A stretch of 32,000 nt of DNA from Gemmata obscuriglobus (lineage in GTDB: Bacteria; Planctomycetota; Planctomycetia; Gemmatales; Gemmataceae): the NCBI RefSeq assembly GCF_008065095.1, contig NZ_CP042911.1:3060001-3092000 (forward strand), written 5' to 3'. How positions within the stretch are numbered: the stretch's first letter is position 1; every line of letters starts with the position of its first letter. The notes under the pieces were generated by a model that saw nothing but the letters and a program-made list of their open reading frames with translations, had not been told where the DNA came from and ran no database searches. The translations under genes were made by a program, and so were the position numbers. Positions 1,149 to 17,800 of the stretch are shown here, in pieces.

Positions 1149-3629
1149 ATGAAAACGGTACCCGACAGCGCCCGTTCCCGCAATCCCGGTTTGCTGCCGC
1201 AGCACCGGGCCGACCTGCACGCGTCCGGGCTCACCGACGGGCAGATCGCGGCGTGCGGGTTCTACTCCGAGAGCGACCCGGAGGTCGTCGCCGGGCTGCT
1301 CCGCGGTCACTTCACGCCGGCGCGGGCGGCGAAGCTCGGCCCGTGCCTGGCATTCCCGTACCACGCCCCCGAGGGCACCCCGACCGGGTACGTGCGGCTC
1401 AAACCCGACCGCCCGCGGACCCGCACGGGGGGCGACAAGGTCGTCAAGTACGAGGCCCCGGCCGGGGCCCCGAACCGCGCGTACCTGCCGCCGGGCACCC
1501 GCTCCGCGCTGGCCGATCCGACCGTCCCGCTGGTGCTCACCGAGGGCGAGAAGAAGGCGGCCGCCGCGGACCAGCACGGGTTCCCGTGCGTCGGGCTGAG
1601 CGGGGTGTGGGCGTGGCAGGTGAAGCGCCCGAAGGACCCGCACGGCCGCGGCACCGGGCCGCGGCAGCTGATCCCGGACCTGGCCCGGGTCGTCTGGGCC
1701 GGCCGCCCGGTGGTGCTGGCGTTCGACTCCGACGTCGCCTCCAACCCCCAGGTGCGGTGGGCCGAGTGGCACCTGGCCGAGGCGCTCCGGACCGCCGGGG
1801 CCGTGGTCCGCGTGCTGCGGTTCCCGGGCGGCCCGGCGGGCGAGAAGGTGGCGCTGGACGACGTCCTGGTCGGCCGCGGCGCGGGCGCGCTCCGCGACCT
1901 GATCCGCGGGGCCGGCCCGCCGGAGCCGCCGGCCCCCGACGGCGGCGGGCCGGAGATCGTGCTCGGGACCGACGAGCACCGGGTGAACGACGAGGCGGTG
2001 CGCGCGCTCGCGGCCGAGCCGGACCTGTACCAGCGGGGCGGGATGCTGGTCCAGGTGGTGAGCACCGAAGCGGATGCCGCCGCGGGCGCCGCGGTGCGGC
2101 GGCCGCCCGGGGCGCGGGTCGTGCGCGAGGTCCCGCTGCCCCTGCTCCGCGAGCGCCTGACCCGGTGCGCCCGGTGGGTGAGGTACGTGGGGAAGGAGGA
2201 CGAGGATTACAAGCCGGTCCACCCGCCGATGTGGTCGGTGAACGCGGTCCACGCCCGCGGCGCGTGGCCCGGGGTCCGGCACCTCGAGGCCGTCGTGAAC
2301 CACCCCGTGGTGCTGGGCAACGGCGCCCTGCTCGCGGCCAACGGGTACAACGCGCCCTCGAAGCTGCTGGTGTGCCTCCCGCCCGACCTGCACCTGAACG
2401 TGTCCGACCGGCCAACACAGCGCGACGCGGTAAACGCGGTCGCGACCCTCGAAGATGTGCTGCGGGACTTCCCGTTTGCGAATCCGGCGCACCGGGCCGC
2501 GTGGCTGGGCGGGCTGCTCACCCCGCTCGCGTGGTTCGGGTTCGACGGCCCGGCCCCGATGCTCCTGATCGACGGCAACACCCGGGGCGTGGGCAAGGGG
2601 CTGCTCGCCGACCTGATCGCGCTGATCCTGACCGGGCGCCGGTTCGCGGTCATGTCCTACTCCGCGGACAAGGAGGAGCTGCGGAAGAAGATCACGAGCC
2701 TGGCGATGGAGGGCGAGCGCCTGGTGCTGCTCGACAACTTGGCCGGCGCGGTGGGGAACGACGTGCTCGACATGGCGCTCACCGGGGACCGGTGGCGGGA
2801 CCGGGTGCTGGGCGGGAACAAGGTGTACGACGGCCCGCTGCACGTCACCTGGGTGGCGACCGGGAACAACGTGCAACTCGCGGCCGACACGGCACGCCGG
2901 TGCTCGCACTGCCGACTCGAGACCCGCGACGAGCGACCGGAACTGCGGACCGACGTGACGTACACCGACCTGCGCGGGCACGTGCGCGTGAACCGCGGTG
3001 CGCTACTCTCCGCGGCGCTCACGATCCTGCGGGCGTGGTACAGCGCCGGGCGCCCGCGGCACGGGCTGGCACCGTGGGGCAGCTTCGAGGGCTGGTCCGC
3101 GGTGGTGCGCGAGGCGGTGGTATTCGCCGGGCTGCCCGACCCCGGCGAGGCCCGGCTCGCGCTCCAGACCAGCGCCGACCGGGACGCGGTCGCGATGGAG
3201 GCGCTGCTCGCGTGCTTGGAACAGATGGACCCGAACCGGCGCGGGGTCACCACGGCCGAGGTGATCGGGCGAATCCGGGACACGACGGGACCGGCCCCGG
3301 ACTGGGTGCCCGAGCTGCGGGCCGCGGTCGAGGAGCTATGCGGGAAGCTCGACGGGCGGGCCCTGGGGGGCCGGTTCCGGCACTTCCAGCGGCGCAACTT
3401 CGGCGGCCGGATGCTGTGCAAGGGCGGCTCCGACCGGACCAACTCGAACCGCTGGGAGGTGGTCCCGGCGAGCGGTGCGGAGGTCCGCCCCGGCCCGGTG
3501 CCGGAGGCCCCGGTGCCCGCTGGAGGTGCCGGAGAAGACGGGCCCGATCCCGCCCGCCCGCAGCCGTCGCGCGCGGGACCGCGGTACCGGAGCGACGACC
3601 GCCCGCACGACCGGAGGGACGTCGCGTGA
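1149..3629 (+). CDS. Mobile-element primase/helicase: N-terminal Toprim (DUF3854-like) domain plus C-terminal P-loop NTPase
   Basis: 826-aa ORF with an ATG start. Toprim signatures are the Glu in PLVLTEGEKKAAAADQHGFPCVGLSGVWAW and the DxD in RPVVLAFDSDVASN. A deviant Walker A (LLIDGNTRGVGKGLLADLI) and a Walker B-like stretch (GERLVLLDNLAG) lie further downstream. The amino-acid composition looks coding, unlike the overlapping Arg/Pro-rich frames. Confidence 0.8.
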   Translation: MKTVPDSARSRNPGLLPQHRADLHASGLTDGQIAACGFYSESDPEVVAGLLRGHFTPARAAKLGPCLAFPYHAPEGTPTGYVRLKPDRPRTRTGGDKVVKYEAPAGAPNRAYLPPGTRSALADPTVPLVLTEGEKKAAAADQHGFPCVGLSGVWAWQVKRPKDPHGRGTGPRQLIPDLARVVWAGRPVVLAFDSDVASNPQVRWAEWHLAEALRTAGAVVRVLRFPGGPAGEKVALDDVLVGRGAGALRDLIRGAGPPEPPAPDGGGPEIVLGTDEHRVNDEAVRALAAEPDLYQRGGMLVQVVSTEADAAAGAAVRRPPGARVVREVPLPLLRERLTRCARWVRYVGKEDEDYKPVHPPMWSVNAVHARGAWPGVRHLEAVVNHPVVLGNGALLAANGYNAPSKLLVCLPPDLHLNVSDRPTQRDAVNAVATLEDVLRDFPFANPAHRAAWLGGLLTPLAWFGFDGPAPMLLIDGNTRGVGKGLLADLIALILTGRRFAVMSYSADKEELRKKITSLAMEGERLVLLDNLAGAVGNDVLDMALTGDRWRDRVLGGNKVYDGPLHVTWVATGNNVQLAADTARRCSHCRLETRDERPELRTDVTYTDLRGHVRVNRGALLSAALTILRAWYSAGRPRHGLAPWGSFEGWSAVVREAVVFAGLPDPGEARLALQTSADRDAVAMEALLACLEQMDPNRRGVTTAEVIGRIRDTTGPAPDWVPELRAAVEELCGKLDGRALGGRFRHFQRRNFGGRMLCKGGSDRTNSNRWEVVPASGAEVRPGPVPEAPVPAGGAGEDGPDPARPQPSRAGPRYRSDDRPHDRRDVA

Positions 3630-3982
3630 CCACCGCCACCGAACTGCTGGCACGGGTGCGCGGGTACGGACCCGCGGCCGAAGGCGCGGAGCTGGTCTTT
3701 GCCACCGACCCGCCGCCCGAGCTGGACGTCCTGTTGCGGGTGCTGCACACCGGCATCCGCGCGGTCCTCACCGGGCGGCGCTGGTGGGGCTCCACGGACG
3801 GCAAGCCGCGCGTGGTCGAGCTGAATCCGTCGGTCCCGATCCCCGCCGACGTCGCGCTGCTCGCGGTCGAAGGGGACGGAGTCTGGGACCGGGTCCGCCC
3901 GGATGCCCGGATCGACTTCCCGGAGCTGTTCGCCGCCCCTGAAACGGCCCGCCCGGCCAGAACAGTGGCACGAACCGGATGA
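3626..3982 (+). CDS. Hypothetical protein, probably translationally coupled to the primase/helicase
   Basis: GTG at 3626 overlaps the primase TGA (3627-3629) as GTGA. The 118-aa product (VTTATELLARVRGYGPAAEGAELVFATDPPPELDVLLRVLHTGIRAVLTG...) has balanced composition. It is the only plausible coding part of the spurious 1122-aa track ORF 614..3982. Confidence 0.5.
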   Translation: MTTATELLARVRGYGPAAEGAELVFATDPPPELDVLLRVLHTGIRAVLTGRRWWGSTDGKPRVVELNPSVPIPADVALLAVEGDGVWDRVRPDARIDFPELFAAPETARPARTVARTG

Positions 3983-4692: not shown

Positions 4693-4722
4693 CCTGCTCC
4701 CGACCCGATGAGGAAGACCGAC

Positions 4723-5727
4723 ATGACGACGCTCGCGAAGCTCGACGCGAACCGCCGCAACGCGCAACGTTCGACCGGACCGCGGACCGCCGAGGGCAAG
4801 GCGGCGGCGGCCCGGAACGCGACCACGCACGGCATCTTCGCCGCGGTGCCGGTGCTGCCCGGCGAGCGCGCCGACGCCTGGGACGTGCACCGCGCCGGGG
4901 TGGTCGCGTCGCTCGCACCGGTCGGGCTGCTGGAAATAAACCTGGCCGAGCGCGCCGCCCTGCTGCTGTGGCGGCTCCAGCGGCTCGCGCGGTACGAGGC
5001 CGAGACGGTGGCCGGGACGCTGGAGGACGCCGGTGTGCCCCCTCTTCCGTCCGACGATCCGTTCCCGGTGACGCGCGACCACCCCACGCGTGACGGCCAA
5101 CTGCGCGACCTGCGGCGCGAGTTGCGCGAGGCCAAACAGGAACTCGCCGAGGTGGCCCCGGCCCTCACATTCTGGACCGACGGTGGTGGGGCCGAGGTGG
5201 GCTCATTCGCCGTCGCGGAGACCATCCTCGACGCGGCGTACGGGCGGGCGGTGGCCGCCGAGGGACTGAAGAGCGACCCGCCCGAATTCGGGGGCAAAGC
5301 GTTCCTGCGCAAGCTCGGGCTCGGTGGCACGGCCCCCGCACCGGTTGCGTGGACGCGAGAACTCATCGGTCGAGGCCTGATGCTGTACGCGGAATTCGCG
5401 CACGAACCGACCGAGCGGTTCGGTGCGGCGGTGCGGGAGGACGTCGAGATTTGGGCCGAGGAATTGGAACGGAAGGTCCGCCGGCTGGAATCGGAGTGCG
5501 TGGCCGTGGCGCGGCTCCTGGACACTCGGGTCGAGCGCAAGCGGGTGGCGAAGTTGCTGCCCGGCGACGGGCGCGACGAGCGGATCGCGAAGTACGAGCG
5601 GCACCTGCACGGCTTGCTCACGTCAACGCTCCACGAACTCGAGCGGCTCCAGGCCCGGCGCGGCGGCCAGTCGGTGCCGCCGCCCGTCGTCGCGGACCTG
5701 AACGTGTCGGTCGAAGGGCCGGGGTGA
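4723..5727 (+). CDS. Conserved hypothetical protein (N-terminal NRRNAQRSTGPRT..GK motif)
   Basis: Track ORF 4708..5727. The ATG at 4723 follows AGGAAG (4711-4716) with a 6-nt spacer, so it is the preferred start. The N-terminus MTTLAKLDANRRNAQRSTGPRTAEGKAAAARNATTHGIF resembles a widespread uncharacterised family. The remainder is helical and charged (ELERKVRRLESE..., LHELERLQARRG). Confidence 0.6.
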   Translation: MTTLAKLDANRRNAQRSTGPRTAEGKAAAARNATTHGIFAAVPVLPGERADAWDVHRAGVVASLAPVGLLEINLAERAALLLWRLQRLARYEAETVAGTLEDAGVPPLPSDDPFPVTRDHPTRDGQLRDLRRELREAKQELAEVAPALTFWTDGGGAEVGSFAVAETILDAAYGRAVAAEGLKSDPPEFGGKAFLRKLGLGGTAPAPVAWTRELIGRGLMLYAEFAHEPTERFGAAVREDVEIWAEELERKVRRLESECVAVARLLDTRVERKRVAKLLPGDGRDERIAKYERHLHGLLTSTLHELERLQARRGGQSVPPPVVADLNVSVEGPG

Positions 5728-6335: not shown

Positions 6336-8444
6336 TTAGCGCGCGACCTGCTCCAACCAGAACCCCTCCAGCTCGACGGCGGCGTCCGGATGATCGAACC
6401 AAACCGCGCCGAACGCGCGCAGCCCCGCCGCCAGTTCGCGCCGGAACGGCTCGTCATTCGCGACGCGCACCGCCGTCTCGACGAACTGCATGGCGGAGCG
6501 TGTGACGAGCGGGTTCAGCCCCGCGCGTCCGAGCACCGCGCCAGCCCACCGGCCGCGCTGGAACGGCCCGGGCCAGGTTACCAGAGGCGTTTCGCAGGCG
6601 ACCGCGTCGGCCACGGTGTTCGCCCCGGACCCGTAGTGTGGGGTGTCCAGCACGACGTCGGCGTGACTGACCAGCCGCAGGTAACCGCCGCGCTCCTGGC
6701 GGGCGATCGCGCCGACCCGCTCCGCGTTCGGGCCGAGCGCACGCCGCAGCCGTGCCATCAGCGCCTGCGTGATCGCCGGTTGCTCGTCCCCCACCAGTAC
6801 CAGGCGCCCGCGGCGGTCCGCGGCGAGGAGCGCGGCGACCGTCGCGTCGAAGTCCGGGTGCCACTTGCGCAGGTTCTGGACGCACAGGTACACCGGCACG
6901 TCCGGCCCCACCCCGAACGTCCGGCGGCGCGCGGCCGGGGCCGGCGGCGCGGGCGGGGCCGGCGGGCGCTCGTAGCACGTCGGCAGCGAACCGAGTCGGC
7001 ACAGGCGCTCGGTGTAGTGCGATTCCCCGCCTGACGGTTCGAGGTCCGCGCCAGACACGTACCAGTCGACCCGCGGGTTCCCGCTCGTGACCGGCCAGCC
7101 CCAGGTCGCGCACTGCACCCGGGACGGGCGAAAGTACGGCAGGAAGTAGTTGGTTGCGTCGGTTCCGATCTCCCAGTAGTGCAGCACGTCAAATCGGGCG
7201 CCCCGGATTCGCTCTGCGGCCTCGTGAACGTGCGCCGGAAGGACCAGGTACTCGCCGGGGAAGGAGGGCCGCAGGTGCCGCAGCACGTTCGCTCCGGACC
7301 GGCTGCACACGAGCGCCACCGCGACGCGCTCGCGGGCGGCGATCCGCTCCACCAGACGCCCCAGGCACCGGTCGTACACACCCTCGTGGCCGTGGGTCAC
7401 CACCACCCCGACCCGCGGGATACCTTCTTTCGGTGAAAGCGGCTCGAGCGGCGTAATCTGCGGCGCGTACAATGCGGCGAACGCTTCGAGCGCCGGGCGC
7501 GGGTCCGCACTGTGGTACGCCAGCCCCATCGGGGGCTCCGCGCCGGACTGGTGGACGCGACCGGGATCGAGGCGCGGCGGGTCCGCGGCCGCCCGTCTGA
7601 GCGCGTCCCGGAGCCGCACGTGGGCGGCGGCGAGCGCGGCCGCGGAATCGGGCACCGGCGGCAGCAGGGCCTCGCGCCGCATCCGGGTCAGGGCCGGAGA
7701 TGCCGCACGCGGTTCGCACGCTTCCATGAGCCGGGCCGCTTCGGCCGTGCGGCCCTGGGCCAGAACCGCCCCGGCGAGCGCGGCCTCCAGGTCCGCGTCC
7801 CCCGGCCGCCGCTCCAGCGCCTCGCGGTAGCACCGCTCCGCCTCCGACCAGCGGTGCAACTCGCCCAGTGCGGCCCCCAGGTTCACCCGGGCGTCGGTCA
7901 GGTCCGGGTCCGCGGCCAGCGCGGCCCGGTAGTCCCGCTCGGCCGGGACCACCCGGCCCTCCTCCCGGAGCAGGTTGCCCCGGTTGTACAGCGCCCGCGC
8001 GAACGACGGCTGGAGCGCGACGGCCCGATCGTAGGCGGCCAGCGCCTCGCTCACCCGCCCCAGATCGCCGAGCACGTTGCCCAGCCCGAAGTGCGCCTCG
8101 GCCCACTGCGGCGCCAGCTCCGCCGCGGCGCGGAACTCTGGCTCCGCCGATACCGGGTCGTTGAGCCGCCGGCACAACTCGGCCAGGTTGTAGCGGTGGG
8201 CCGCGACGTCCGGGCGTAACGCCGCCGCCGCTCGCCAGTGCGGTAACGCCGCGCCGCGGTCCCCGGACTGGAGCCGCGCCAGCCCCAGCAGCGAATGGGC
8301 GTCCGCGTGCCCCGGGTCGACCGCCAGGGCTTGGCCCGCGAGCCGTTCGGCCTCCGGGTGGTCCCCGGCCGCCCAGGCGGCGGTGGCGGCGCGGAAGTGG
8401 TCGGCGGCGGTGGTCATGGAGCTTCGGCCGGAAGGTTGATACAT
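6336..8444 (-). CDS. TPR-repeat protein with a C-terminal GT41 (SPINDLY/OGT-like, COG3914-type) glycosyltransferase domain
   Basis: 702 aa. The N-terminal ~250 aa are TPR-like (AHSLLGLARLQSGDRGAALPHWRAAAALRPD..., AHFGLGNVLGDLGRVSEALAAYDRAVALQPSFARALYNRGNLL...). The C-terminal half matches the bacterial SPINDLY-family pattern (FDVLHYWEIGTDATNYFLPYFRPSRVQCATWGWPVTSGNPRVDWYVSG...HYTERLCRLGSLPTCYERPP...VYLCVQNLRKWHPDFD...DVVLDTPHYGSGANTVADAVACETPLVTWPG). An alternative start is the ATG at 8417 (MTTAADH...). Confidence 0.8.
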   Translation of the reverse strand: MYQPSGRSSMTTAADHFRAATAAWAAGDHPEAERLAGQALAVDPGHADAHSLLGLARLQSGDRGAALPHWRAAAALRPDVAAHRYNLAELCRRLNDPVSAEPEFRAAAELAPQWAEAHFGLGNVLGDLGRVSEALAAYDRAVALQPSFARALYNRGNLLREEGRVVPAERDYRAALAADPDLTDARVNLGAALGELHRWSEAERCYREALERRPGDADLEAALAGAVLAQGRTAEAARLMEACEPRAASPALTRMRREALLPPVPDSAAALAAAHVRLRDALRRAAADPPRLDPGRVHQSGAEPPMGLAYHSADPRPALEAFAALYAPQITPLEPLSPKEGIPRVGVVVTHGHEGVYDRCLGRLVERIAARERVAVALVCSRSGANVLRHLRPSFPGEYLVLPAHVHEAAERIRGARFDVLHYWEIGTDATNYFLPYFRPSRVQCATWGWPVTSGNPRVDWYVSGADLEPSGGESHYTERLCRLGSLPTCYERPPAPPAPPAPAARRRTFGVGPDVPVYLCVQNLRKWHPDFDATVAALLAADRRGRLVLVGDEQPAITQALMARLRRALGPNAERVGAIARQERGGYLRLVSHADVVLDTPHYGSGANTVADAVACETPLVTWPGPFQRGRWAGAVLGRAGLNPLVTRSAMQFVETAVRVANDEPFRRELAAGLRAFGAVWFDHPDAAVELEGFWLEQVAR

Positions 8445-8487
8445 TGCCCGGTGCCCATCATCCTATGCCCGCTCCCGTGAGGCGACC

Positions 8488-9591
8488 GTGACCGAGCCGA
8501 CCGCCGATGCCCCGAGCCGGATCGAGTGCCGCGTGGACGACGGGTTCGCCGGCTGGCTGGCGGGGGCGAACGGGAGCCTCGCGGTGACCACGTACCAGGC
8601 GGGCAAGGTGGTGCTCGTCGGCTGGGACGGGCGCCGGGTGACGGTGCTGGCCCGCGACTTCCCCAAGCCGATGGGGCTGGCGGTCGACGGCCCGCGGCTG
8701 CTCCTGGCGACCCGGCACGAGGTGGTCCTCCTGGCCGACGCCCCGGCCCTGGCCGCGGACTTCAAGCCGGACGAGCCCGGGCGGTACGACGCGCTGTACC
8801 TGCCGCGCACCCGGTACTGCACCGGCGACCTGAACGTGCACGACGTGGCGGTCGGGGCGGACGGCCCGTGGGTCACCGCCACTCGGTTCTCGTGCCTGGC
8901 CCGGCTGAGCCACGCGTTCAGCTTCGTGCCGGCGTGGCGCCCGCCGTTCGTGTCGGACACGGTGCCCGAGGACCGGTGCCACCTGAACGGCCTGGCGCTG
9001 GTGGACGGGCGGCCGCGGTACGTGACCTGCCTGGGCACCACCGACGCCGCCGGGGCGTGGCGCGGGAAGAAGGCGGACGGCGGGGTGCTGGTGGACGTGG
9101 CCGACGGCAGCGTGCGGCTCCGCGGGCTGTCGATGCCGCACTCGCCGCGGTGGCACAACGGCGCGCTGTGGCTGCTCGACTCGGGCCGGGGCGCGCTGCT
9201 GCGTGCGGACCCGGAGCGGGGCACGCGCGAGGCGGTGTGCGGGCTGTCCGGATACCTGCGCGGGCTGTCGCTGGTGGGGCCGTACGCGCTGGTCGGCCTG
9301 TGCCAGATCCGCGAGAAGCACATCTTCGGCGGGCTCCCGGTGCAGCAGACGCACCCGGCGCTGCTGTGCGGGGTCGCGGTGGTGGACACGCGGACCGGAG
9401 CGCGGGTCGGGTTGCTCGAGTTCACGGCCGGGTGCACCGAGGTGTTCGAGGTCGCGTGGCTGCCCGGGGTGCGGCGGCCGATGCTCCTGAACCCCGCTCA
9501 CCCGGCTCAGACCGACGCGTTCACCGCCCCGGCCTTCAGCTACTGGCTCCGACCCGCGAACGCGCTGCCGGAGCCACCGGCAGTGCCTTGA
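8488..9591 (+). CDS. TIGR03032 / DUF4915-like conserved hypothetical protein (predicted beta-propeller-like)
   Basis: GTG start at 8488, preceded by GAGG (8479-8482). 367 aa. The motifs CHLNGLALVDGRPRYVTCLG, MPHSPRWHNGALWLLDSGRG, YLRGLSLVGPYALVGLCQIREKHIFGGLPV and LCGVAVVDTRTGARVGLLEFTAGCTEVFEV match my recollection of the TIGR03032 family, which has no known function. Confidence 0.7.
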   Translation: MTEPTADAPSRIECRVDDGFAGWLAGANGSLAVTTYQAGKVVLVGWDGRRVTVLARDFPKPMGLAVDGPRLLLATRHEVVLLADAPALAADFKPDEPGRYDALYLPRTRYCTGDLNVHDVAVGADGPWVTATRFSCLARLSHAFSFVPAWRPPFVSDTVPEDRCHLNGLALVDGRPRYVTCLGTTDAAGAWRGKKADGGVLVDVADGSVRLRGLSMPHSPRWHNGALWLLDSGRGALLRADPERGTREAVCGLSGYLRGLSLVGPYALVGLCQIREKHIFGGLPVQQTHPALLCGVAVVDTRTGARVGLLEFTAGCTEVFEVAWLPGVRRPMLLNPAHPAQTDAFTAPAFSYWLRPANALPEPPAVP

Positions 9592-9596
9592 GGCGG

Positions 9597-9623
9597 GTGC
9601 ACGGGGTGGGAGGTCCGTGGCAC
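9597..9623. terminator. Possible bidirectional hairpin between convergent genes (no U-tract)
   Basis: gtgcacgg (9597-9604) pairs with ccgtggcac (9615-9623): 8 bp with one bulge and a 10-nt loop. It sits in the 38-nt gap between the stop at 9589-9591 (+) and the stop at 9630-9632 (-). Confidence 0.2.
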
Positions 9624-9629
9624 CTCGCA

Positions 9630-12600
9630 TCAGTCGAGGCCTGCGGGATTACTTTCAGGCCCGCTCGCGGACCCGTGGGACAAGAGCGCCTCGAGGTTGC
9701 GCCGCGCCTCCGCGTTGTTCGGGTCCACGACGAGTACTCCACGGAGCGCCGCCTCGAGCGCCGCGGGCGCCGCGCCGGCCGCCACCCGCGCGTGGACGAG
9801 CGCCACCCGCGGCCCCCGTGCCCCCGGCTGCTCTGCGACGGCCGCTTCGAGCACCGCGGCCGCCCCCGCGTGGTCCCCCCGCGCCGTCTTCCACCGGGCC
9901 TCCAGCACGGCCCCTTCGGCCGCCCCGGCCGGACCCAGGCTCCGGAGCGCGGCCGCCTGGCGTGCCACCGCCGCGCCGTCCCCGGCCTTGATCGCGGTCT
10001 CACCCAGCCCCAGCAGAGCGGGGGCGAATTGCGGGTCCTGGGCCAGCGCCGCCCGCCACAGCTCCTCGGCCTCACCCGCGCGTCCGTGCTCCAACAGCAG
10101 CACCGCCAAATTGTGCCTCCCGTGGACCGTCCGCAGGCCGGTGTCCACGCTCGCGAAGTGCGGCCCCTCGGAACCGCCGATCAGCTCCCGGTACAGGTGC
10201 TCGGCGCCGCCGGGGTTGCCGGCCTCGCGCGCGTACCCGGCGGCAAGGAACAGGAGCTCGGCGTCGGCCGGGTAGTGCTCGCGCCCGCGGCGACACGCGG
10301 CGACGGCCCCGGCCCGGTCGCCGCTCGCGCGGCGGCACCGGGCCAGCAGGGCGAACGCCTTCCGAACGATCGAGTCCCGCGGGTGCGACGCGGCCAGGCT
10401 CCGCTCGAGCGCCCGCGCCGCGGCCACGACGTCGCCCCGCTCGTGGAGGACGCACCCCAGGTTAAAGAGGGTGAACGGGTCGCCCGGGCGCTCGGCCTCG
10501 TCCAGGCCCAGCAGTCGCAGGTCCCGGTCCAGCTTCCGGCGCCGCACCGCCGGGTCCACGTACCCGACGTGCCGCACCGTCACGTCCGCCCACCGCACGT
10601 CGGCGCCGGTGGCACGCAGGGCCGGCAGGATCTGCTCGTGCACCCGGTACGTCCACCGGTGCGCCGGGTGCCGCCGGAACAGCCGCACGTGGTCCACGGC
10701 GGTGCCCCCGCTCCCGAGGCCGTCGGGCACGCACAGGCACCGCAGCACGAACGCCGCGTTGCCGGCCGGCAGCTGCTGGAGTAGAGCGCGGAGCTTCTCC
10801 CGGCCCGCGCCGTCCAGCCGGTCGTCGGCGTCCATCCAGAACGCGTAGTCCCCGGTGGCCGCATCCAGGGCCGCGTTCCGCGCCGCCGCGAAGCTGTCGG
10901 CCCACGGGAAGGTTCCGATCACGCACCCGAACGACTTCGCCACCTCGACCGTCCGATCGGCGGACCCGGTGTCGATCACCACGGCCTCGTCGACCAGGTC
11001 CCGGACGCCCTCAAGGCACGCGCCCAGGTTGTGCGCCTCGTTCCGCACGATCATGGTCAGCGACACGCGAGGCCGCCCGGCCACTGCGGGGACCGCGGGC
11101 ACCGCGGCCGGCGGCTCGGCACGGGGCGGGTTTGCCCCCGGGGACGGGACCGGGTTCCGGAACCGGACCGGCGTGCGCGCCCCCAGCACCCGGACGCGGT
11201 CCTCGACCGCGGCCGCCGTCCGGGCCCAGCTCCATCCCAGCGCCGCGCGGCGACCGGCCGCGCCCCGCGCCGCCCGCGCGGCGGCGTCCGAAACGGCCTC
11301 GCGCAGGACGGCCACCAGAGCGCCGGGGTCCGGTTCCAGCCACCACGGGAACCCGGCCGTAGGCCACCCCCCGACCTCCTCCCGCTCAAAGTACCGGACC
11401 CGGGCGGGCACGCGCCACCCGGCCGCCGGGGGCACGAACTCGTCGGTCGGCCCGCCCGCGGTGACCACGACCGGTAGCCCGCACGCCATCGCCTCCAGGA
11501 CCGGGAGGCCGAACCCCTCGCCCCGGTACGGGTGCGTCAGGACGTCGCACGCGGCGAACAGTCGCGGCACGTCGACGTCCGCAAGCTCCCCGGTCAGGTA
11601 TAGTACCTCAGGGCCGCCGGGAGTCGCCTGGGCCGCCCGGACCAGCGCCTCGGCGGTCTGCCCCCGGTAGAAAGTGCCGGCGCCCATCTCCTTCACCACC
11701 AGGCACACGTCGTCGGCGGCGGTGAACGCCCTCTGGTACGCCGCGAGCAGCGCGTCGAACCCCTTGCGCGGGATGGTGCCGCCCACGAACAGCAGTTTCA
11801 CCCGTTTGGCCGTGCGTAGCGAGAGCGGGGCGAGCCCGGGCCGGAATCGCTCCGGGTCCACGCCCGGCGGGACCAGCGCGACCCGCTCCTCGGGCACCCC
11901 GGACGCGACAAACGCCCGGAGCACCGCCCGTGAGTACGCCCACACCTCGTCCACGCCCTCGACGATGGGTCGGACCCAGGCCCGGGGAAGCCGGCCGAAC
12001 TCCCACGGCTGCATCAGCACCAGCGGCTCGCTGCCGACCGGTGCGGAGAAGTCCGGCGGCCACCGGTGCCGCACGTGTACCGCCCGGTTCGGAGCCCGCT
12101 GTGCGAGAGCCGCCAGCTCCGGCGGGAGCGGCACCGCGGTGCCCCCGAGCGGGCGCGCGAGCCCGACCGCGTGCCCCCGCGCCACCAGTTCGGCGCACAC
12201 GGCCCGGTTCACACGGGCCAGCGAGTGAACCGCGTCCAGCTCCCCGTCCCAGGCGACGGCCACCCGCCCGCTGTCCGTTCCGGCGGTCGCCCCAACCCCC
12301 TCGCCCTTGATCAGGAACGCCACCCGGGTCCCCGTGACCCCGTAGACCGGTTCCGGGAACCCGCCCGCCCACGCGGCCCACTCGCCGTCGAATAATTCCG
12401 GCGGGTCGGGCCAGATCAGACACCCGCCGGGCCGCAGTGCGTTGTACGCGCCAACCGCGTGCGACCGGCCGGGCGTTGGGGTGCTCCCGGTCCCCACGAT
12501 CGCGAGATCGAGCGGGGCCAAGTTCCCGACTTCGAAGTGATCATTGGTGGCACCGACGAACCGCATCCCCTGGGCGGTGCCGATGCGGTTCCGTGCGCGG

Positions 12601-14567
12601 GCGACCGGACCGAGCGGGTCGCCGGCCGGTGCCCCCAGCACGTAGACGGCCGCGTCGGGCGGAGCGATCGCGGTCACGTCGGCGCTCAGGCGCCCGGCCG
12701 CGGTTCCAATCGCCAGCACTCGGCGCGGAGCGAAGTGGGCGACCAGCGCGAGCACGACGCGCACGTCTGCTGGCGGAACGAGGGCACCCGGCGGTTCGGC
12801 CACCTCGACGCTACCGAAACGGGCCGTAAACGTGTCCGCGGTGAGGCGCACGAACGGGCTTCGCCCCCCCTCTAACGGCGCGGGCGCCGGGGGCGGGTGC
12901 AACTGTTCGGCCGCGGGTCGGGACGTTTCGAGCGGCACCAGGGGCTCCCCCGTGAGCCCGGTCGCGTTCGCCAGGAGCGCCTGCCCGTGGCGAACGCACG
13001 CGGCTTCGGCGGTGCGGCCGAGTACCGCCAGCGCCTCGACCAGGTGCGTCGCGCTGGCGGCGTCGAACGGATCGGCCTCGACCGCAACCCGGAGCCGTTC
13101 GACCGCATCGGCGGCCCGCCCGGTCCTTAGTAGTGCAAGCCCCAGAGCTGCCTGCAGGTGCGGCTGTTCCGGGCAGCATGCGGCTGCGGCCTCGTGATCC
13201 GACACACCGCTGGTCAGCTCGGCGATCAGTTCGAGCGCCCGACCGCGTAACAGCCGCGCCTTCTCCTGTCGCTCAGCCTCCGCGTCGTCCGGGTGGTCGT
13301 ACCCGGCCCGGTTCCACCCGACACGGACCCAGTCGAACGGTCCCGAGTACGGAACGCAGTCGGCCTCTGCCACAGTCAACGCGGGACGCGCCTTCAGTTC
13401 GTCGACCGCCGCCCGGGCCACATTCACGGCCTCCTCGGCGCGCCCGAGGGCGACCAGCGCGAGCGCGCGGCCGACGGCCGAAACGCGGTTGCCGGTACCC
13501 GCCGCGACCGCCAGGTGCAGTTCCGCGCCGGCATCCGGCCGCGCCAATACCCCGAGGGCGTGGTGGTCGGCTGCGGCCGTCAGGTCCGCCTCCAGTACCG
13601 GATCGCTGTCCGGTCCGTCGGACGCCGCCTGTTGCCATACGCGGCCGGACAGTGACAGCTGCGTCGCACTCCGGAACCGTCGGGCGGCTCGGTCACGCAC
13701 CTCGTCCCACCCTGCCGCACCGGCGGCGACCGCGGCCTCCACCAGTGCGTCGAACGCGAGCGGCCGTACCCGGTCCCGGGCGGCAGCGGCGATCGTCCGC
13801 CGCCCCCCTTCATCGGTCAACAGCCTCCCGACCACCGCCTCGAGATCCGCTTCCGTATACGTCACGCACTCGGTCTCGGGTTCGAGTGAACTCCGGGCGT
13901 GGTCGCCCCTGGCTCGCTGAAGCACCACCGCACCGGCCGCCGCAGCCTCCAGCGCCCGCGGGTCGTACGAGCCCAGAACTTCACTCACAACCACGAGCTT
14001 GCTGCGCCGCAGTCGCGCTCGGTACTCGGCTCCGGGTTCTGCGGCGGTGACCTGCACCCGGACCCGCTCGCCTAAGGTGGCCAGTCGCCCGAAGTCCGGA
14101 GGCCATGCATCTCGGGCGGCTGATTCCCGACGTCCGACGATGAGAACGTCGATGTCCCGCTCGGCCTCCGGGGCCTCAATTTCCGCCCGGAAGTGCCGAT
14201 CAAGGCCGAACAGGTTGGCGGCCCGTACGGGGCCGATTCCGGCCCGCCGCAACCGGTCCGCCGAATGTGCGTCTGTAAGCACCAGATCGGCCAGGGGCAG
14301 CAGGTGCCGTAACCCGCTCCAGAACAAGCGCGTGTCTCGGGCCAGGACGACCACCGGGACCGGCGCGGCCCACACCCACGCGGGCACGCTCGCACGTTCG
14401 GGCCACACAAGCACCGCCTCAGGGAGCTGACCGGCACGCGCTTCGACCTCGTTCCAATTTGCGGCGCGAGCAGAAAAAACGGCCCACGCGCCGCTGCCGA
14501 CCGGCGTGTGTAGGTACCGATCGAAAAAGATGGGGTCGTCACTCGGGCCGAACAGGAACCGGGCCAT
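9630..14567 (-). CDS. Multidomain glycosyltransferase fusion enzyme: GT1-like N-domain, TPR, class-I methyltransferase-like fold, GT4, GT2, C-terminal TPR
   Basis: Track ORF 9630..14600 begins at GTG. The in-frame ATG at 14567 (MARFLFGPSDDP) follows GAGG with a 5-nt spacer. GT4 part: KLLFVGGTIPRKGFDALL...THPYRGEGFGLPVLEAMACGLPVVVT (~12270-11300). GT2 part: VSLTMIVRNEAHNLGACLEGVRDLVDEAVVIDTGSADRT...YAFWMDADDRL (~11070-10400). MTase-like part: RRVLAIGTAAGRLSADV...LRPGGCLIWPD (~12800-12300). TPR-like helices lie at ~13650-12950 and ~10400-9680. Confidence 0.85.
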   Translation of the reverse strand: MARFLFGPSDDPIFFDRYLHTPVGSGAWAVFSARAANWNEVEARAGQLPEAVLVWPERASVPAWVWAAPVPVVVLARDTRLFWSGLRHLLPLADLVLTDAHSADRLRRAGIGPVRAANLFGLDRHFRAEIEAPEAERDIDVLIVGRRESAARDAWPPDFGRLATLGERVRVQVTAAEPGAEYRARLRRSKLVVVSEVLGSYDPRALEAAAAGAVVLQRARGDHARSSLEPETECVTYTEADLEAVVGRLLTDEGGRRTIAAAARDRVRPLAFDALVEAAVAAGAAGWDEVRDRAARRFRSATQLSLSGRVWQQAASDGPDSDPVLEADLTAAADHHALGVLARPDAGAELHLAVAAGTGNRVSAVGRALALVALGRAEEAVNVARAAVDELKARPALTVAEADCVPYSGPFDWVRVGWNRAGYDHPDDAEAERQEKARLLRGRALELIAELTSGVSDHEAAAACCPEQPHLQAALGLALLRTGRAADAVERLRVAVEADPFDAASATHLVEALAVLGRTAEAACVRHGQALLANATGLTGEPLVPLETSRPAAEQLHPPPAPAPLEGGRSPFVRLTADTFTARFGSVEVAEPPGALVPPADVRVVLALVAHFAPRRVLAIGTAAGRLSADVTAIAPPDAAVYVLGAPAGDPLGPVARARNRIGTAQGMRFVGATNDHFEVGNLAPLDLAIVGTGSTPTPGRSHAVGAYNALRPGGCLIWPDPPELFDGEWAAWAGGFPEPVYGVTGTRVAFLIKGEGVGATAGTDSGRVAVAWDGELDAVHSLARVNRAVCAELVARGHAVGLARPLGGTAVPLPPELAALAQRAPNRAVHVRHRWPPDFSAPVGSEPLVLMQPWEFGRLPRAWVRPIVEGVDEVWAYSRAVLRAFVASGVPEERVALVPPGVDPERFRPGLAPLSLRTAKRVKLLFVGGTIPRKGFDALLAAYQRAFTAADDVCLVVKEMGAGTFYRGQTAEALVRAAQATPGGPEVLYLTGELADVDVPRLFAACDVLTHPYRGEGFGLPVLEAMACGLPVVVTAGGPTDEFVPPAAGWRVPARVRYFEREEVGGWPTAGFPWWLEPDPGALVAVLREAVSDAAARAARGAAGRRAALGWSWARTAAAVEDRVRVLGARTPVRFRNPVPSPGANPPRAEPPAAVPAVPAVAGRPRVSLTMIVRNEAHNLGACLEGVRDLVDEAVVIDTGSADRTVEVAKSFGCVIGTFPWADSFAAARNAALDAATGDYAFWMDADDRLDGAGREKLRALLQQLPAGNAAFVLRCLCVPDGLGSGGTAVDHVRLFRRHPAHRWTYRVHEQILPALRATGADVRWADVTVRHVGYVDPAVRRRKLDRDLRLLGLDEAERPGDPFTLFNLGCVLHERGDVVAAARALERSLAASHPRDSIVRKAFALLARCRRASGDRAGAVAACRRGREHYPADAELLFLAAGYAREAGNPGGAEHLYRELIGGSEGPHFASVDTGLRTVHGRHNLAVLLLEHGRAGEAEELWRAALAQDPQFAPALLGLGETAIKAGDGAAVARQAAALRSLGPAGAAEGAVLEARWKTARGDHAGAAAVLEAAVAEQPGARGPRVALVHARVAAGAAPAALEAALRGVLVVDPNNAEARRNLEALLSHGSASGPESNPAGLD

Positions 14568-14600
14568 TCTCGCCTCGGACTGTGAGTCTACTCTCCGCAC

Positions 14601-14618
14601 CCCACTCGAACGAGTGGG
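14601..14618. promoter_or_regulatory. 8-2-8 inverted repeat (cccactcg aa cgagtggg) just upstream of the fusion enzyme start, in the divergent control region
   Basis: Read directly. The arms are exact reverse complements. The site lies 34-51 nt upstream of the ATG at 14567 (minus strand), inside the ~310-nt divergent spacer shared with the giant + strand gene. It could be an operator or a 5'-UTR hairpin. Confidence 0.3.
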
Positions 14619-14880
14619 TCATAGTGGCAAAAGTATGGCGCCGACGACGCGGGCACCTCCCGCATTCACCACCCGCGCTCGGTGGCCGTTGCAAATAACG
14701 ACTTGCGCCGGCGGCATGGGCCGAAAGTTCACTCGGGGCGAAGCTCGAAACGGGCCTACCGAATCCGCGAAGTTTTTGTGCGAGAGCATTTTTTAGCCTT
14801 GGACGAACTCTCGGCGTCGGATAAGCTACCTGCCTCTTCAATCTGATGAGATACCGTCCGTCGGTGCCGTACCCGGCCCG

Positions 14881-17800
14881 ATGTGGTCCTGCGCGTGTCG
14901 CAGGAATAAACCCCAACCCATCCCGCCCATGCCCCGCCGCATCCGCCTGTGGATCGACCCGTTCGCCGCCCTCATGGACCTGCGTGCGTTCGTCGCCGGA
15001 CGATGCCGACGCGCCGCGGCGCCGCTGACGCGTCTGTTCGCCGCACCGGGGAAAATTGACCCGCAGCCCCTTCTGGCGAAGCCCGAGCTGCGCCCGATGG
15101 ATTGGCGGAACCCGCCCTCGGAGACCCTCAGCGCGGCCGCCATACCGCTGGCGGCGACGGCCGCCGCCGCAACGATCGCGGTGTACGCGCTGGCCGACTG
15201 GCAAGCGGCCGAGCAGGTGGCCGCGGCCCAGGTCGGGGCCGGGGGCGGTGGGGGCGGGCCGGTCGACGGTTACGCCGACTGGGCGCCGACGCTTGCCGAA
15301 CCGGCGGCAACCCTAGACCAAGCAACCGGTTCCGTTGCACCAGCCGACGACGAATCCGACTTAACACCGCGAGACGGGGCCGACCTCGCCTTGGACGGAG
15401 CCGGTTCGTCCGAAGGCGACTTCGATTCGTTCGGCCCGGCCGTCGACTCGTACGCCGGTGCCGAGTGGTTCGGTGGTACAGGAGCGGGCGGTGGCGACCA
15501 ACCGGAGCCGTTCGGCGGTGCATTTAATGGCATCGCTGTCACCGACACAATACCGGACCCGGTCAGCGGTGTGCCGCCGGTTTTAACCGGAACTGAGCCC
15601 CAGAACTTGGTCGGCTCGGATACGCCGGGAACCGGCAACACCGGCCCGGGTGCGACACCGCTCCCGGGCGACGCGTTGACGCCCGCGAGCGCCTCGGGTG
15701 CCGAGCACCCGAGCCCCAGCTCCCCGACGGCCAACTTACCAGGCGACGCAGGCACGGAGCGCCCGCCGACGCTCGGGGCTGTCTCTCTGAGCCTCGACCC
15801 CACGTTCTTCGCCTCTGCAGTCACCCCCGACTCGGCGCCCGGCGCCGATCCGGTAACGATCACCCCGGCGGTGAGTCCGCCGGTCACCCCGCCAACCAAT
15901 CCCGAGCCGGTCAGCCCGCCCGTCACCCCCGGGCCGGTCAGCCCACCCACGTCTCCGCCGCTCCCCCCCGAGCCGGTGAGCCCGCCAACGTCTCCGCCAC
16001 TCCCCCCCGAGCCGGTCAGCCCGCCGGTCAGCCCGCCGGTCAGCCCGCCAACGTCTCCGCCGGTCAGCCCGCCGGTGAGCCCACCCACGTCTCCGCCGGT
16101 CAGCCCGCCGGTCAGCCCGCCGGTCAGCCCGCCGGTCAGCCCGCCGGTCAGCCCGCCGGTCAGCCCGCCGGTCAGCCCGCCGGTCAGCCCGCCGGTCAGC
16201 CCACCCACGTCTCCGCCGGTTATCGGAGACCGCGTGTGGAACGACACGAACGGCAACGGGATTCAGGATGGGGGTGAACCGGGGTTAGCGGGTGTTCTCG
16301 TGCGCATGTACGACGAGAACTCGGAATTTTACGCTAGCACGGTCACAGACTCCAACGGCGGCTACGCGTTTACAGGTGTTGGCGCGGGCTACTATCAGCT
16401 TCAATTTCAGTTGCTAACAGGTTACCAGTTCTCGCCTGCGAACGCGGGCAGTGACGACGCGGTCGACAGCGACGCCGACCCGCTCAGCGGCTTTTCCAAC
16501 TTCTTCTTTGTGACCTACGGAGCAGGGAACACCACCATCGACGCGGGCATGCGTCCGACGAACCCCCCGGTAGTCCCACCAACTACCCCGCCGGTGGTCC
16601 CACCGACCAGCCCGCCCCCGCCCGGATCCGACGTTCGGGCCAACACTTACACCTCCAACTATCAGACCGTACCGGCTGTGGCGAGCGATGCGGACGGCGA
16701 CTTCGTCATCGCCTGGATGAGTGATGGTCAGGATGGTAGCGGGTACGGGGTCTACGCCCAGCGGTACGCAGCCAACGGTACACCGGTCGGGAACGAGTTC
16801 CGCGTCAACACGACCACCCTCGGTGACCAGGGCTCACCATCGGTCGCGATGGACGCGGACGGCGACTTCATCGTCACTTGGCAGAGCTACGGACAAGAGG
16901 GCACCTATGGGAATTATTACGGCCACAACTTGGGAATTTACGCCCAGCGGTACTCGGCCAGTGGGGCGGCTGTCGGCTCCGAGTTCCGGGTCAACACGTT
17001 CACCTACGGCCTCCAGTTCCAACCATCGGTAGCGATGGACGCGGACGGCGACTTCGTCATTGCCTGGGCGAGTGGCGGGCAGGGGCCCGGGAGCAACTGG
17101 TATGACGTCTACGCCCAGCGGTACTCGGCCAGCGGCGCCGCGCTCGGCTCCGAGTTCCGGGTCAACACGTACATTACCAGCAGTCAGATGGACCCGGCGG
17201 TGACGATGGACGCGGACGGCGACTTCGTCATCGCCTGGGAGAGCCAAGGCCAGGACGGCAGTGTGGGCGGGATCTACGCCCAGCGGTACACGGCCGGCGG
17301 CGCCGCGCTCGGGTCCGAGTTCCGGGTCAACACGTACACCACAAACCAGCAGATGGGCCCGGCGGTAGCCGCGGACGCGAACGGGGGGTTCGTTGTCGTC
17401 TGGCTGAGTTCCGGTCAAGAGGGTAGTGCGTCGAGGGTCTACGCCCAGCGGTACGCGGCCAACGGCACCGCGCTCGGGTCCGAGTTCCGGGTCAACACGT
17501 ACACCGGCGGTCATCAGAGCTCACCGTCGGTGGCGGTGGACGCGGACGGCGATTTCGTCGTGACCTGGCAGAGCTACGGACAGGACGGCAGCAGGTACGG
17601 AGTCTGGGCTCAGCGGTACAACTCAACCGGCACCGCTGTCGGGTCCGAGTTCCGGGTCAATACGTACACCGCCGGCGATCAGATGTTCCCGACGGTGGCG
17701 GTGGACGCGGACGGGGATGCCGTGGTCGCCTGGCAGAGCGCCGCCCAGGACGGCAGCGGCAACGGCATCTACTTCGCCCTGTTGGGCGGCGGTAGCTCCC

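Follow-up and report, generated by a model that had tools for sequence, protein, structure and literature searches.

Two merged accessory cassettes, each with a soluble TPR glycosyltransferase, beside a giant Rhs/YD-repeat gene of Gemmata obscuriglobus: a candidate system for protein modification before export

We analyzed a 32,000-nt stretch of the Gemmata obscuriglobus genome (NZ_CP042911.1, positions 3,060,001–3,092,000; hereafter the window, in whose positions all coordinates are given) that holds genes for a GT41-TPR glycosyltransferase, a TIGR03032/DUF4915 protein, and a multi-module glycosyltransferase fusion next to a giant gene for an Rhs/YD-repeat protein. The reading we favor, with somewhat better than even confidence, is that two merged cassettes gave rise to this locus, that it serves as a composite accessory module to a single giant secreted Rhs/YD-repeat protein, and that its enzymes modify the giant before export. 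The genomic coupling behind this reading was found twice independently and is robust: soluble TPR-glycosyltransferases occur with giant secreted Rhs proteins, and TIGR03032 proteins occur with TPR-glycosyltransferases and with proteins containing a propeller domain that we call FRVN after its repeat motif. From these associations and from known systems we infer a mechanism in which the giant pre-protein is O-glycosylated in the cytoplasm before it is exported. A first-pass annotation made from the DNA letters had suggested, as a plausible reading, that the three accessory genes form a dedicated protein O-glycosylation/methyl-glycan system and had proposed a comparison with related genomes. In that comparison the GT41-TPR gene, the TIGR03032 gene, and the fusion gene were each repeatedly found next to giant Rhs proteins, but they belonged to two independent cassettes rather than to a single three-gene system.

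The first cassette (cassette A) consists of the GT41-TPR and TIGR03032 genes and a gene for a large protein. Its order was the same in all six of the nearest relatives, whose TIGR03032 proteins are 75–82% identical to that of the window: GT41-TPR (−), a spacer of 74–75 nt, DUF4915 (+), 125–434 nt, and the large protein (+), with no fusion enzyme between these genes in any of the six. The GT41-TPR orthologues in L081–L083 (loci are numbered with L and proteins with P) hold the same position and share 68–73% identity. The large protein carried RHS/TEN_YD-shell domains in three of the six cases, one of them ending with PT-HINT and AHH domains; the remaining three had no precomputed Pfam annotation or ended with the contig. 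The FRVN propeller was present in all four cassette A giants with DNA examined (L081–L084) and directly followed the leader in L081, L082, and L084.

The same association extends beyond the nearest relatives. By their identity to the window protein, TIGR03032 loci fall into a close clade (L001–L023, at least 55%) and a distant clade (at most 51%). A gene with FRVN repeats lay immediately downstream of TIGR03032, on the same strand and after a gap of 10–260 nt, in 16 of the 21 close-clade loci with enough downstream sequence and in none of the 57 distant-clade loci (Fisher P = 1e-12). The close-clade loci span Gemmataceae, Isosphaeraceae, Pirellulales, Nostoc, Aphanothece, Elainellales, and Competibacteraceae, and their downstream proteins otherwise vary, with RTX, cadherin, and He_PIG modules in Nostoc and with trypsin-like modules and proteins of more than 3290 aa in Pirellulales. 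The FRVN domain is the shared element of the proteins downstream of close-clade TIGR03032 genes. In a gammaproteobacterial metagenome-assembled genome (L012), GT41-TPR (−) is followed by three FRVN proteins, with TIGR03032 between the first and the second; none of these proteins is Rhs-like.

The second cassette (cassette B) pairs the fusion enzyme with a giant gene. In all five lineages studied (Singulisphaera acidiphila, Fimbriiglobus ruber, Gemmata palustris, and two metagenomic lineages) the fusion homologue was divergent from a giant gene with Rhs-repeat homology, the giants ranging from ~2800 aa (a split open reading frame) to more than 3800 aa. The divergent spacers are 149–908 nt long (L085–L092), and in two of them an additional small gene, for a methyltransferase or a glycosyltransferase, is present. 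All cassette B giants share the N-terminal motif (F/L)xALxxLRxF, and neither DUF4915, GT41, nor FRVN was found within ±10 kb of the fusion homologues. The two cassettes are thus independent elsewhere and coincide only in G. obscuriglobus, where the giant gene has the leader of cassette B and the FRVN propellers of cassette A and where both accessory gene sets are present, which makes the window locus a merger. The idea of a conserved three-gene unit was given up after tblastn searches for the fusion modules in 80 TIGR03032 genome loci returned nothing but one GT4 match.

The gene layout and spacings of the first-pass annotation were borne out. The GT41-TPR gene (6336–8444, − strand, 702 aa) and the TIGR03032/DUF4915 gene (8488–9591, + strand, 367 aa) diverge from a 43-nt spacer (8445–8487), and the latter converges with the fusion gene (9630–14567, − strand) across a 38-nt gap. 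The open reading frame of the fusion gene reaches 14600, but the start is most likely M12 at 14567, since the NCBI protein P0121 has 1645 aa, the length counted from M12, and homologues align from there. In an all-frame scan for open stretches, the frame of the giant gene (14929–32000, + strand, more than 5690 aa, extending past the window end) was open from 14797 to the window end (31998). We place its start at the conserved ATG at 14929 (MPRRIRLWIDPF), the first ~65 residues from there being 60–63% identical to the partner giants in L085 and L088; the divergent intergenic region shared with the fusion gene (14568–14928) is therefore 361 nt long, or 314 nt if the ATG at 14882 is used. All four frames were backed by frame plots of G+C at third codon positions (GC3). 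No sigma-70-type promoter or intrinsic terminator was found in 8300–9800, a result of little weight as the scan was limited to these two classes. None of the three accessory proteins contains a transmembrane or signal-like segment, and all three are predicted to be soluble.

The identities proposed earlier for the GT41-TPR and TIGR03032 genes held up, as both family profiles scored above their cut-offs and the TPR array was strong. The GT41 profile PF13844 scored 34.7 bits against a cut-off of 25, the match being confined to the C-lobe (profile positions 363–522 of 543). The N-terminal TPR array covers residues ~20–240 (TPR_1 E 4e-29, TPR_2 E 1e-28, TPR families ~1e-29) and aligns to the TPRs of human OGT (hOGT), and it is followed by an OGT/SPINDLY-type GT-B catalytic region at ~320–700. 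Searched alone against the PDB, the catalytic region matched TtOGT (5djs, E 2e-18), XcOGT (5e-13), SPINDLY (3e-12), and hOGT (1e-8). Motifs of the nucleotide-sugar site were aligned as well, "vqNLRKwhp" with "nNsyKlnp" of XcOGT and LDTPHYGSGANT with "LDThpYnahtT", such that the enzyme appears to keep the lysine of NLRK and the LDTxxYxSGxxT motif; we take the aligned lysine and the LDT...T loop to correspond to K842 and T921/T922 of hOGT. The domain also gave weak matches of N-glycosyltransferase (NGT) type (NF049992, E 0.005; structure 8p0q, E 3.6e-4). Judged by these alignments, the protein is assigned to the CAZy family GT41 and to its OGT/SPINDLY subtype with TPRs.

The first-pass description of the fusion enzyme as six modules stood in part: the Glyco_trans_1_2, GT4, GT2, and C-terminal TPR modules were confirmed, whereas the middle TPR module stayed below threshold and the methyltransferase gave no Pfam match. 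From the N-terminus, and all on the − strand, the modules are a Glyco_trans_1_2 domain, the CgeB-like half of a GT-B fold (13764–14162, residues 147–279; PF13524 E 2.7e-16, confirmed on the fragment); weak TPR/BTAD-like helical repeats (12999–13283, residues 440–534; sub-threshold matches only, BTAD E 7.5e-4 and TPR_16 E 2e-3); a relic of Methyltransf_24 type (12321–12803, residues ~600–760); a GT4 domain of GT-B fold (11424–12125, residues 826–1059; PF13692 E 2e-19, PF00534 E 1e-17, and PF13439); a GT2 domain of GT-A fold and GmaR/SunS type (10437–11075, residues 1176–1388; PF00535 E 1.8e-17); and a TPR array (9651–10115, residues 1496–1650; TPR_17 E 8e-11, TPR_2 E 2e-9, TPR_14, and TPR_19). 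A scan of residues 331–800 gave no Pfam match at E ≤ 1 for the methyltransferase module, although it is homologous to the Methyltransf_24 domain (PF13578) that orthologues carry. Compared with these, VLEIGTAAGH has changed to VLAIGTAAGR and FVDGGHD to IVGTGST, and ~24 residues are deleted. The module is degenerate and probably inactive in G. obscuriglobus, which weakens the earlier idea of a methyl-glycan.

The best PDB matches of the GT4 module are PimB' (3oka) and MshA, and the NCBI product name of P0121 is taken from PimB. For the GT2 module, which retains a DAD motif (WMDADD), the best PDB sequence matches are GmaR (22ao, E 1.3e-19) and SunS (7msp/7msn, E ~1e-10; 1.6e-10). Its score against the SunS equivalog TIGR04195 was 44.6 bits with a cut-off of 350, consistent with a relative of the SunS family but not a member. 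By similarity and by the order of a DxD GT-A domain followed by TPRs, the C-terminal part appears to be a GT2-TPR enzyme of GmaR/SunS type. Homologues of the fusion number roughly 48, and full-length ones (52–61% identity, ~98% coverage) were found in Singulisphaera acidiphila, Fimbriiglobus ruber, Gemmata palustris, Urbifossiella, and metagenomes. Identity to the orthologues is highest in the GT4 (67–72%) and GT2 (68–80%) modules and 43–56% in the others, the methyltransferase-like module being lowest (43–44%). A further protein of 2255 aa (P0146) has a TPR-GT41 fused to CgeB-like, GT4, GT2, and TPR modules in one chain.

The TIGR03032 protein of the window, 100% identical to GobsT_26200, scored 391.9 bits against the family model (cut-off 251.5; 330 of 335 positions covered) and matched PF16261 at E 4e-117. 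Its AlphaFold2 model is a six-bladed beta-propeller (pLDDT 86, pTM 0.87), whose best folds in Foldseek were Kelch, YWTD, and designer propellers only, at a template-modeling (TM) score of ~0.5; a profile search of PDB sequences gave no relative. With nothing but generic propellers at that score and no PDB sequence match, we dropped the attempt to assign a function by enzyme analogy from structure, and a relationship to the FRVN domain was ruled out by profile–profile comparison. Among 15 sequences from Planctomycetota and metagenomes that are 60–75% identical to the window protein, ~90 residues are invariant, including H118, H165, H218, H278, C136, C164, and many Asp and Arg; the invariant histidines are spaced ~50 residues apart, roughly one per blade. 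These residues may form an active site, possibly a metal-binding one.

The family is very large, with at least 8000 clusters at 90% identity, and a pattern scan with one genome per species placed it in at least 597 species of eight or more phyla, from which 80 loci were retrieved. An exhaustive profile search of 1.84 billion representatives gave 1312 relatives (representatives at 50% identity) at E ≤ 1e-30, and 98 of the best 150 representatives were multi-domain. The best-scoring of all, P0289, is a single TPR-GT41-DUF4915 protein of 1170 aa and thus the Gemmata GT41/TIGR03032 gene pair as one chain. The architecture DUF4915-TPR-GT41 was found in P0300, P0311, and L045, DUF4915 is joined to GT2 and TPR in P0309 and P0312, and DUF4915-TPR-GT9-like proteins occur in seven genome loci. 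Further architectures were DUF4915-GT2-TPR, DUF4915-TPR-GT2, GT2-DUF4915, GNAT-DUF4915, and Sulfotransfer_3-DUF4915. The TIGR03032 protein probably shares a protein substrate with the group-transfer enzyme it is paired with and acts on it as an enzyme or as an obligatory cofactor.

Two observations concern distant members of the family. About one-quarter of the multi-domain representatives combine an Asp/Asn beta-hydroxylase, Sulfotransfer_3, and DUF4915 in ~1000 aa; this architecture occurs in Actinobacteria, Acidobacteria, and Gammaproteobacteria (e.g., L025, L026, L036, L056, and L080) and looks like a different, uncharacterized tailoring pathway around the same propeller. In 22 loci, including L037, L055, L056, and L058, distant-clade TIGR03032 genes lie beside genes for large right-handed beta-helix proteins with RTX, SdrD_B, or Calx-beta modules.

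The giant neighbor noted earlier was confirmed, but it is not merely a PS/PT-rich surface protein. Its Pfam matches are RHS_repeat (PF05593, 216 bits, E 2.8e-65), SdrD_B, and PKD; this content, with an RHS/YD region, makes it an Rhs-type protein and probably a polymorphic toxin. The order from the N-terminus is a leader, a hydrophobic segment, a disordered G/A/S/T/P-rich stretch, a (V/T)SPP linker, an SdrD_B domain, two FRVN sets, about nine units of 117 aa, PKD-like "WGDGT" modules, and more than 1800 aa of RHS/YD repeats. The conserved leader with the motif WIDPFAALxDLRAFV and the hydrophobic segment (residues 67–90; Kyte–Doolittle maximum 1.84 at residue 67) lie at 14929–15200 (+), and the PS-rich (V/T)SPP linker (residues 308–432) at 15850–16224 (+), with a 12-nt repeat in 16 copies at 16011–16202. 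The RHS/YD-repeat region (26566–32000, +) runs from residue ~3880, with seven or more PF05593 stretches from ~4080, and is homologous to the RHS/TEN_YD-shell regions of the giants in L084–L092. PT-HINT is found in the partner giants of L084 and L089/L090, and AHH also in L084.

The two FRVN propellers lie at 16624–17793 (+, residues 566–955, seven units of ~55 aa) and 17845–18978 (+, residues 973–1350, seven units); the second is 65% identical to the first and has a tandem periodicity of 165 nt. The unit consensus is "EFRVNTYTxGxQ..PsVAmDADGDFVVaW..QDGSG.GIYAQRY". An AlphaFold model of propeller 1, with 30 homologues as the alignment, has seven blades (pLDDT 89, pTM 0.91); among PDB folds it comes closest to the propeller of the alkylating enzyme CylK (TMq 0.78). 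No PDB sequence is related to the domain, which also lacks a Pfam model, gave only sub-threshold GH43 matches, and weakly matched the NCBIfam model PDIAV_lipo. It forms a family of more than 7800 clusters at 90% identity in many phyla and is often stand-alone (~415 aa) or joined to type IX secretion system (T9SS), RTX, or cadherin modules. The units beside TIGR03032 (window, L001–L022, and L081–L084) differ from unlinked units (L093–L172) at four positions, M/D/Y/A vs. A/N/F/G, giving VAMDADGDF vs. VA(A)DAxGNF and (I)YAQRY vs. (V)FGQRx. The difference could mark a sub-family or a modification site, or may simply reflect phylogeny.

According to the mechanism that we propose for the accessory module, the giant pre-protein would be made in the cytoplasm, and the soluble TPR-bearing glycosyltransferases would dock on it via their TPR arrays and O-glycosylate it before export. 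The FRVN propeller region would be the joint target of the GT41-TPR enzyme and TIGR03032. As for the fusion enzyme, its GmaR/SunS-like GT2-TPR part would start a protein-linked sugar, and its GT4 and CgeB-like modules would extend it; the methyltransferase module would probably contribute nothing in G. obscuriglobus. In favor of a protein acceptor are the nearest solved relatives of the GT2 module, GmaR and SunS, the OGT/SPINDLY type of the GT41 domain, the TPRs in both enzymes, the solubility of all three proteins, and the lack of polysaccharide genes detailed below.

Several results weigh against this reading. Within the GT41 domain the N-lobe is poorly aligned, and an Arg stands where the "rcHpvg" motif of TtOGT has His. 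The commonest fusion partners of TIGR03032, counted in 62 further multi-domain representatives, were Sulfotransfer_3 (27/62) and Asp/Asn beta-hydroxylase (16/62), with GT41 in only 5/62 and GT2 in 2/62 (TPR was found in at least 18/62 and GNAT in 2/62); the role of the family therefore cannot be sugar-specific. The earlier proposal of protein O-glycosylation thus stands as far as the protein-directed glycosyltransferase families, the domain fusions, and the soluble enzymes go, but not as regards TIGR03032, which is not glycosylation-specific. The most obvious O-glycosylation target, the PS-rich linker, is not conserved: it is unique to this species, and no partner giant of any relative has a PS/PT-rich tract. 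We thus rejected the linker as the conserved target and, with it, the expectation of PS/PT-rich partners; the conserved partner of GT41/TIGR03032 is the FRVN propeller. The reciprocal test covered 80 metagenomic FRVN loci and showed DUF4915 nearby in only 1; the FRVN domain as such can therefore do without TIGR03032, and a role as general FRVN maturation factor was rejected. The cassette comparisons covered only 5–6 loci per cassette, several of them metagenomic.

A further difficulty is that GT4, GT2, and CgeB-like domains also build polysaccharides and glycolipids and are common in polysaccharide loci. The enzymes might thus make a free glycan, an exopolysaccharide, or a glycolipid, such as a matrix or anchor bound by the giant, and leave the giant itself unmodified. 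We consider this improbable, even though the best characterized relatives of the GT4 module, the phosphatidylinositol mannoside mannosyltransferase PimB', after which P0121 is named, and MshA, would point to lipid or small-molecule acceptors, and extra small glycosyltransferase or methyltransferase genes lie by the fusion enzyme in two relatives. Genes for polysaccharide initiation (phosphoglycosyl transferase), flipping, polymerization, ABC/OPX export, and sugar-nucleotide synthesis were found neither among the open reading frames of the window (Pfam/NCBIfam) nor in the annotated flanks of 11 related loci (L081–L092). The enzymes are soluble with no membrane segment and have TPR arrays; proteins or peptides are what the enzymes with the nearest solved structures to the GT2 and GT41 domains glycosylate, and the giant proteins are the only neighbors conserved across genera.

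The TPR and propeller proteins could alternatively be mainly non-catalytic and serve as chaperones, secretion adaptors, or regulators of the giant, their glycosyltransferase activity being secondary or lost. Eag-type chaperones do serve Rhs effectors of the type VI secretion system (T6SS), the best folds of TIGR03032 are peptide-binding Kelch and YWTD propellers, TPR arrays bind proteins, and the distinctive leader motifs shared by the partner giants could be docking sites; the methyltransferase module has already decayed, and GmaR, which among solved structures is nearest to the GT2 module, has a second function as an anti-repressor (PMC9638930). Still, the catalytic signatures are kept (the DxD of GT2, the EX7E-type region of GT4, and the Lys and LDT..T of GT41), the catalytic modules are the best conserved in the fusion enzyme (67–80% vs. 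43–56%), and the ~90 invariant residues of TIGR03032, with their four His, two Cys, and many Asp and Arg, form a pattern more typical of an active site, such that we regard an essentially non-catalytic role as unlikely. Least probable by far is that the adjacency has no functional meaning and the genes merely co-travel in a variable region rich in mobile elements. Mobile-element-like genes (DUF1580 and DUF3854) do flank the cassette in the window, and integrase or transposase genes flank the relatives, but gene order, strand, and the ~75-nt spacer are kept in all six relatives although the outer flanks differ, and the same linkage is seen again in other phyla and in fused genes, next to the FRVN association given above. 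This explanation is strongly disfavored.

Modification of the giant before export would have close precedents. HMW1C of Haemophilus influenzae is a soluble cytoplasmic enzyme of the GT41 family whose gene adjoins that of the very large secreted HMW1, which it modifies before export (PMC2877744, PMC3983070). The likeness of HMW1C/HMW1 and the NGTs to the window locus is a soluble GT41 enzyme encoded beside a very large secreted protein. However, HMW1C is without TPRs and N-glycosylates Asn, whereas the window enzyme is of the OGT/SPINDLY type with TPRs, and HMW1 is a two-partner-secretion (TPS) beta-helix adhesin with the transporter HMW1B, whereas here the partner is an Rhs/YD protein with FRVN propellers and TIGR03032 is always present. 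No TpsB/POTRA or TPS-domain match was found in the window. Flagellin O-GlcNAc transferase GmaR of Listeria monocytogenes has the same glycosyltransferase-then-TPR order (PMC9638930). With GmaR and SunS the fusion enzyme shares solubility, a GT2 (GT-A) domain with TPR or helical repeats behind it, and an acceptor that is a protein or peptide, presumed so here; it differs in that this module is just one of the six that make up the 1645-aa protein, comes with neither the GmaR anti-repressor domain nor MogR, and has as its presumed acceptor a giant Rhs protein instead of flagellin or a bacteriocin.

Other systems, including serine-rich-repeat adhesins (GtfA/GtfB and further glycosyltransferases), TibC/TibA, and Aah/AIDA-I, likewise encode several dedicated cytoplasmic glycosyltransferases of GT-B and GT-A fold beside a very large surface protein and add short O-linked glycans before export. 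The GT9-like domains of the seven DUF4915-TPR fusion loci recall the heptosyltransferase family, but the window locus has neither accessory Sec nor an autotransporter, and the substrate class, the domain fusion, and the TIGR03032 partner are different. Polymorphic toxin loci of the Rhs/YD type share the long RHS/YD region, and orthologous cassettes end with PT-HINT and an AHH nuclease domain followed by small open reading frames; a T6SS, PAAR, or VgrG context was not seen at the window locus. In a search by terms of Zhang et al. 2012 (PMC3482391), glycosyltransferases appeared only as toxin domains, and the parts reached by these terms made no mention of upstream accessory glycosyltransferase or TIGR03032 genes. 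Accessory glycosyltransferase genes are not described in the giant-gene preprint either, and a literature text search returned no paper naming DUF4915 or TIGR03032. Dedicated cytoplasmic glycosylation of a large surface protein is already known, while the literature searched contains no description of the Rhs/FRVN substrate class, of TIGR03032 as an obligatory partner, or of the six-module enzyme.

The analysis gives TIGR03032 its first concrete context, as the family travels with protein-directed group-transfer enzymes and large secreted proteins and is tied in one clade specifically to a seven-bladed propeller domain without a Pfam model; a very large family thereby becomes experimentally approachable. 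The locus is also an example of a merger of two accessory cassettes on a single mosaic giant gene. Were the giant Rhs protein glycosylated, the known range of dedicated cytoplasmic glycosylation would grow from adhesins and flagellins to include Rhs/YD-shell toxins. A bolder idea, which we hold only tentatively and think rather unlikely, is that TIGR03032 is a new catalytic class, a metal-dependent six-bladed propeller that creates or processes an acceptor site on large secreted repeat proteins, which the paired transferase then glycosylates, sulfates, or acetylates. If so, the substrates would be the FRVN propellers here and beta-helix/RTX proteins elsewhere, and the planctomycete giant Rhs toxins would be the first identified TIGR03032 substrates and the first Rhs toxins needing cytoplasmic modification.

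Some features of the giant gene and its flank remain to be described. Two types of giant leader were seen, (F/L)xALxxLRxF in the partners of the fusion enzyme (WIDPFAALMDLRAFV in the window) and "IWDYLL / AWDFLL" in the TIGR03032-linked giants L081, L082, and L084. A motif LExR(L/M)(V/M)P follows the leader in these three and in the FG-GAP-type fusion-enzyme partners L086 and L089. Downstream of the FRVN propellers, the tandem array of 117-aa units ("TVTISATGAGAGEPSSTGMYRISRTG...") occupies 19044–22195, with a period of 351 nt and 8.9 copies; some of the copies are near-identical, which suggests recent expansion. By eye the units are Calx-beta-like, while Pfam gave no match at E ≤ 1e-3. The G+C content dips to 0.56–0.62 at 23001–25000, in the PKD-like "WGDGT" region, compared with ~0.70 around it.

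The left flank of the window is mobile-element-like, with open reading frames at 663–1028, 1149–3629, and 4708–5727 (all +), and among its products are proteins of DUF1580 (E 2.5e-8) and, with 826 aa, of DUF3854 (E 6e-22). In the contig of one relative, genes for a DUF3854 protein and a small helix-turn-helix protein likewise lie a few genes left of GT41. The C-terminal third of the protein from 4708–5727 is 69% identical to an integrase-like neighbor of GT41 in L083. The GC3 frame plot switches phase at 3560–3982, where Pfam gave no match, which suggests a short separate gene or a frameshift ending the DUF3854 gene.

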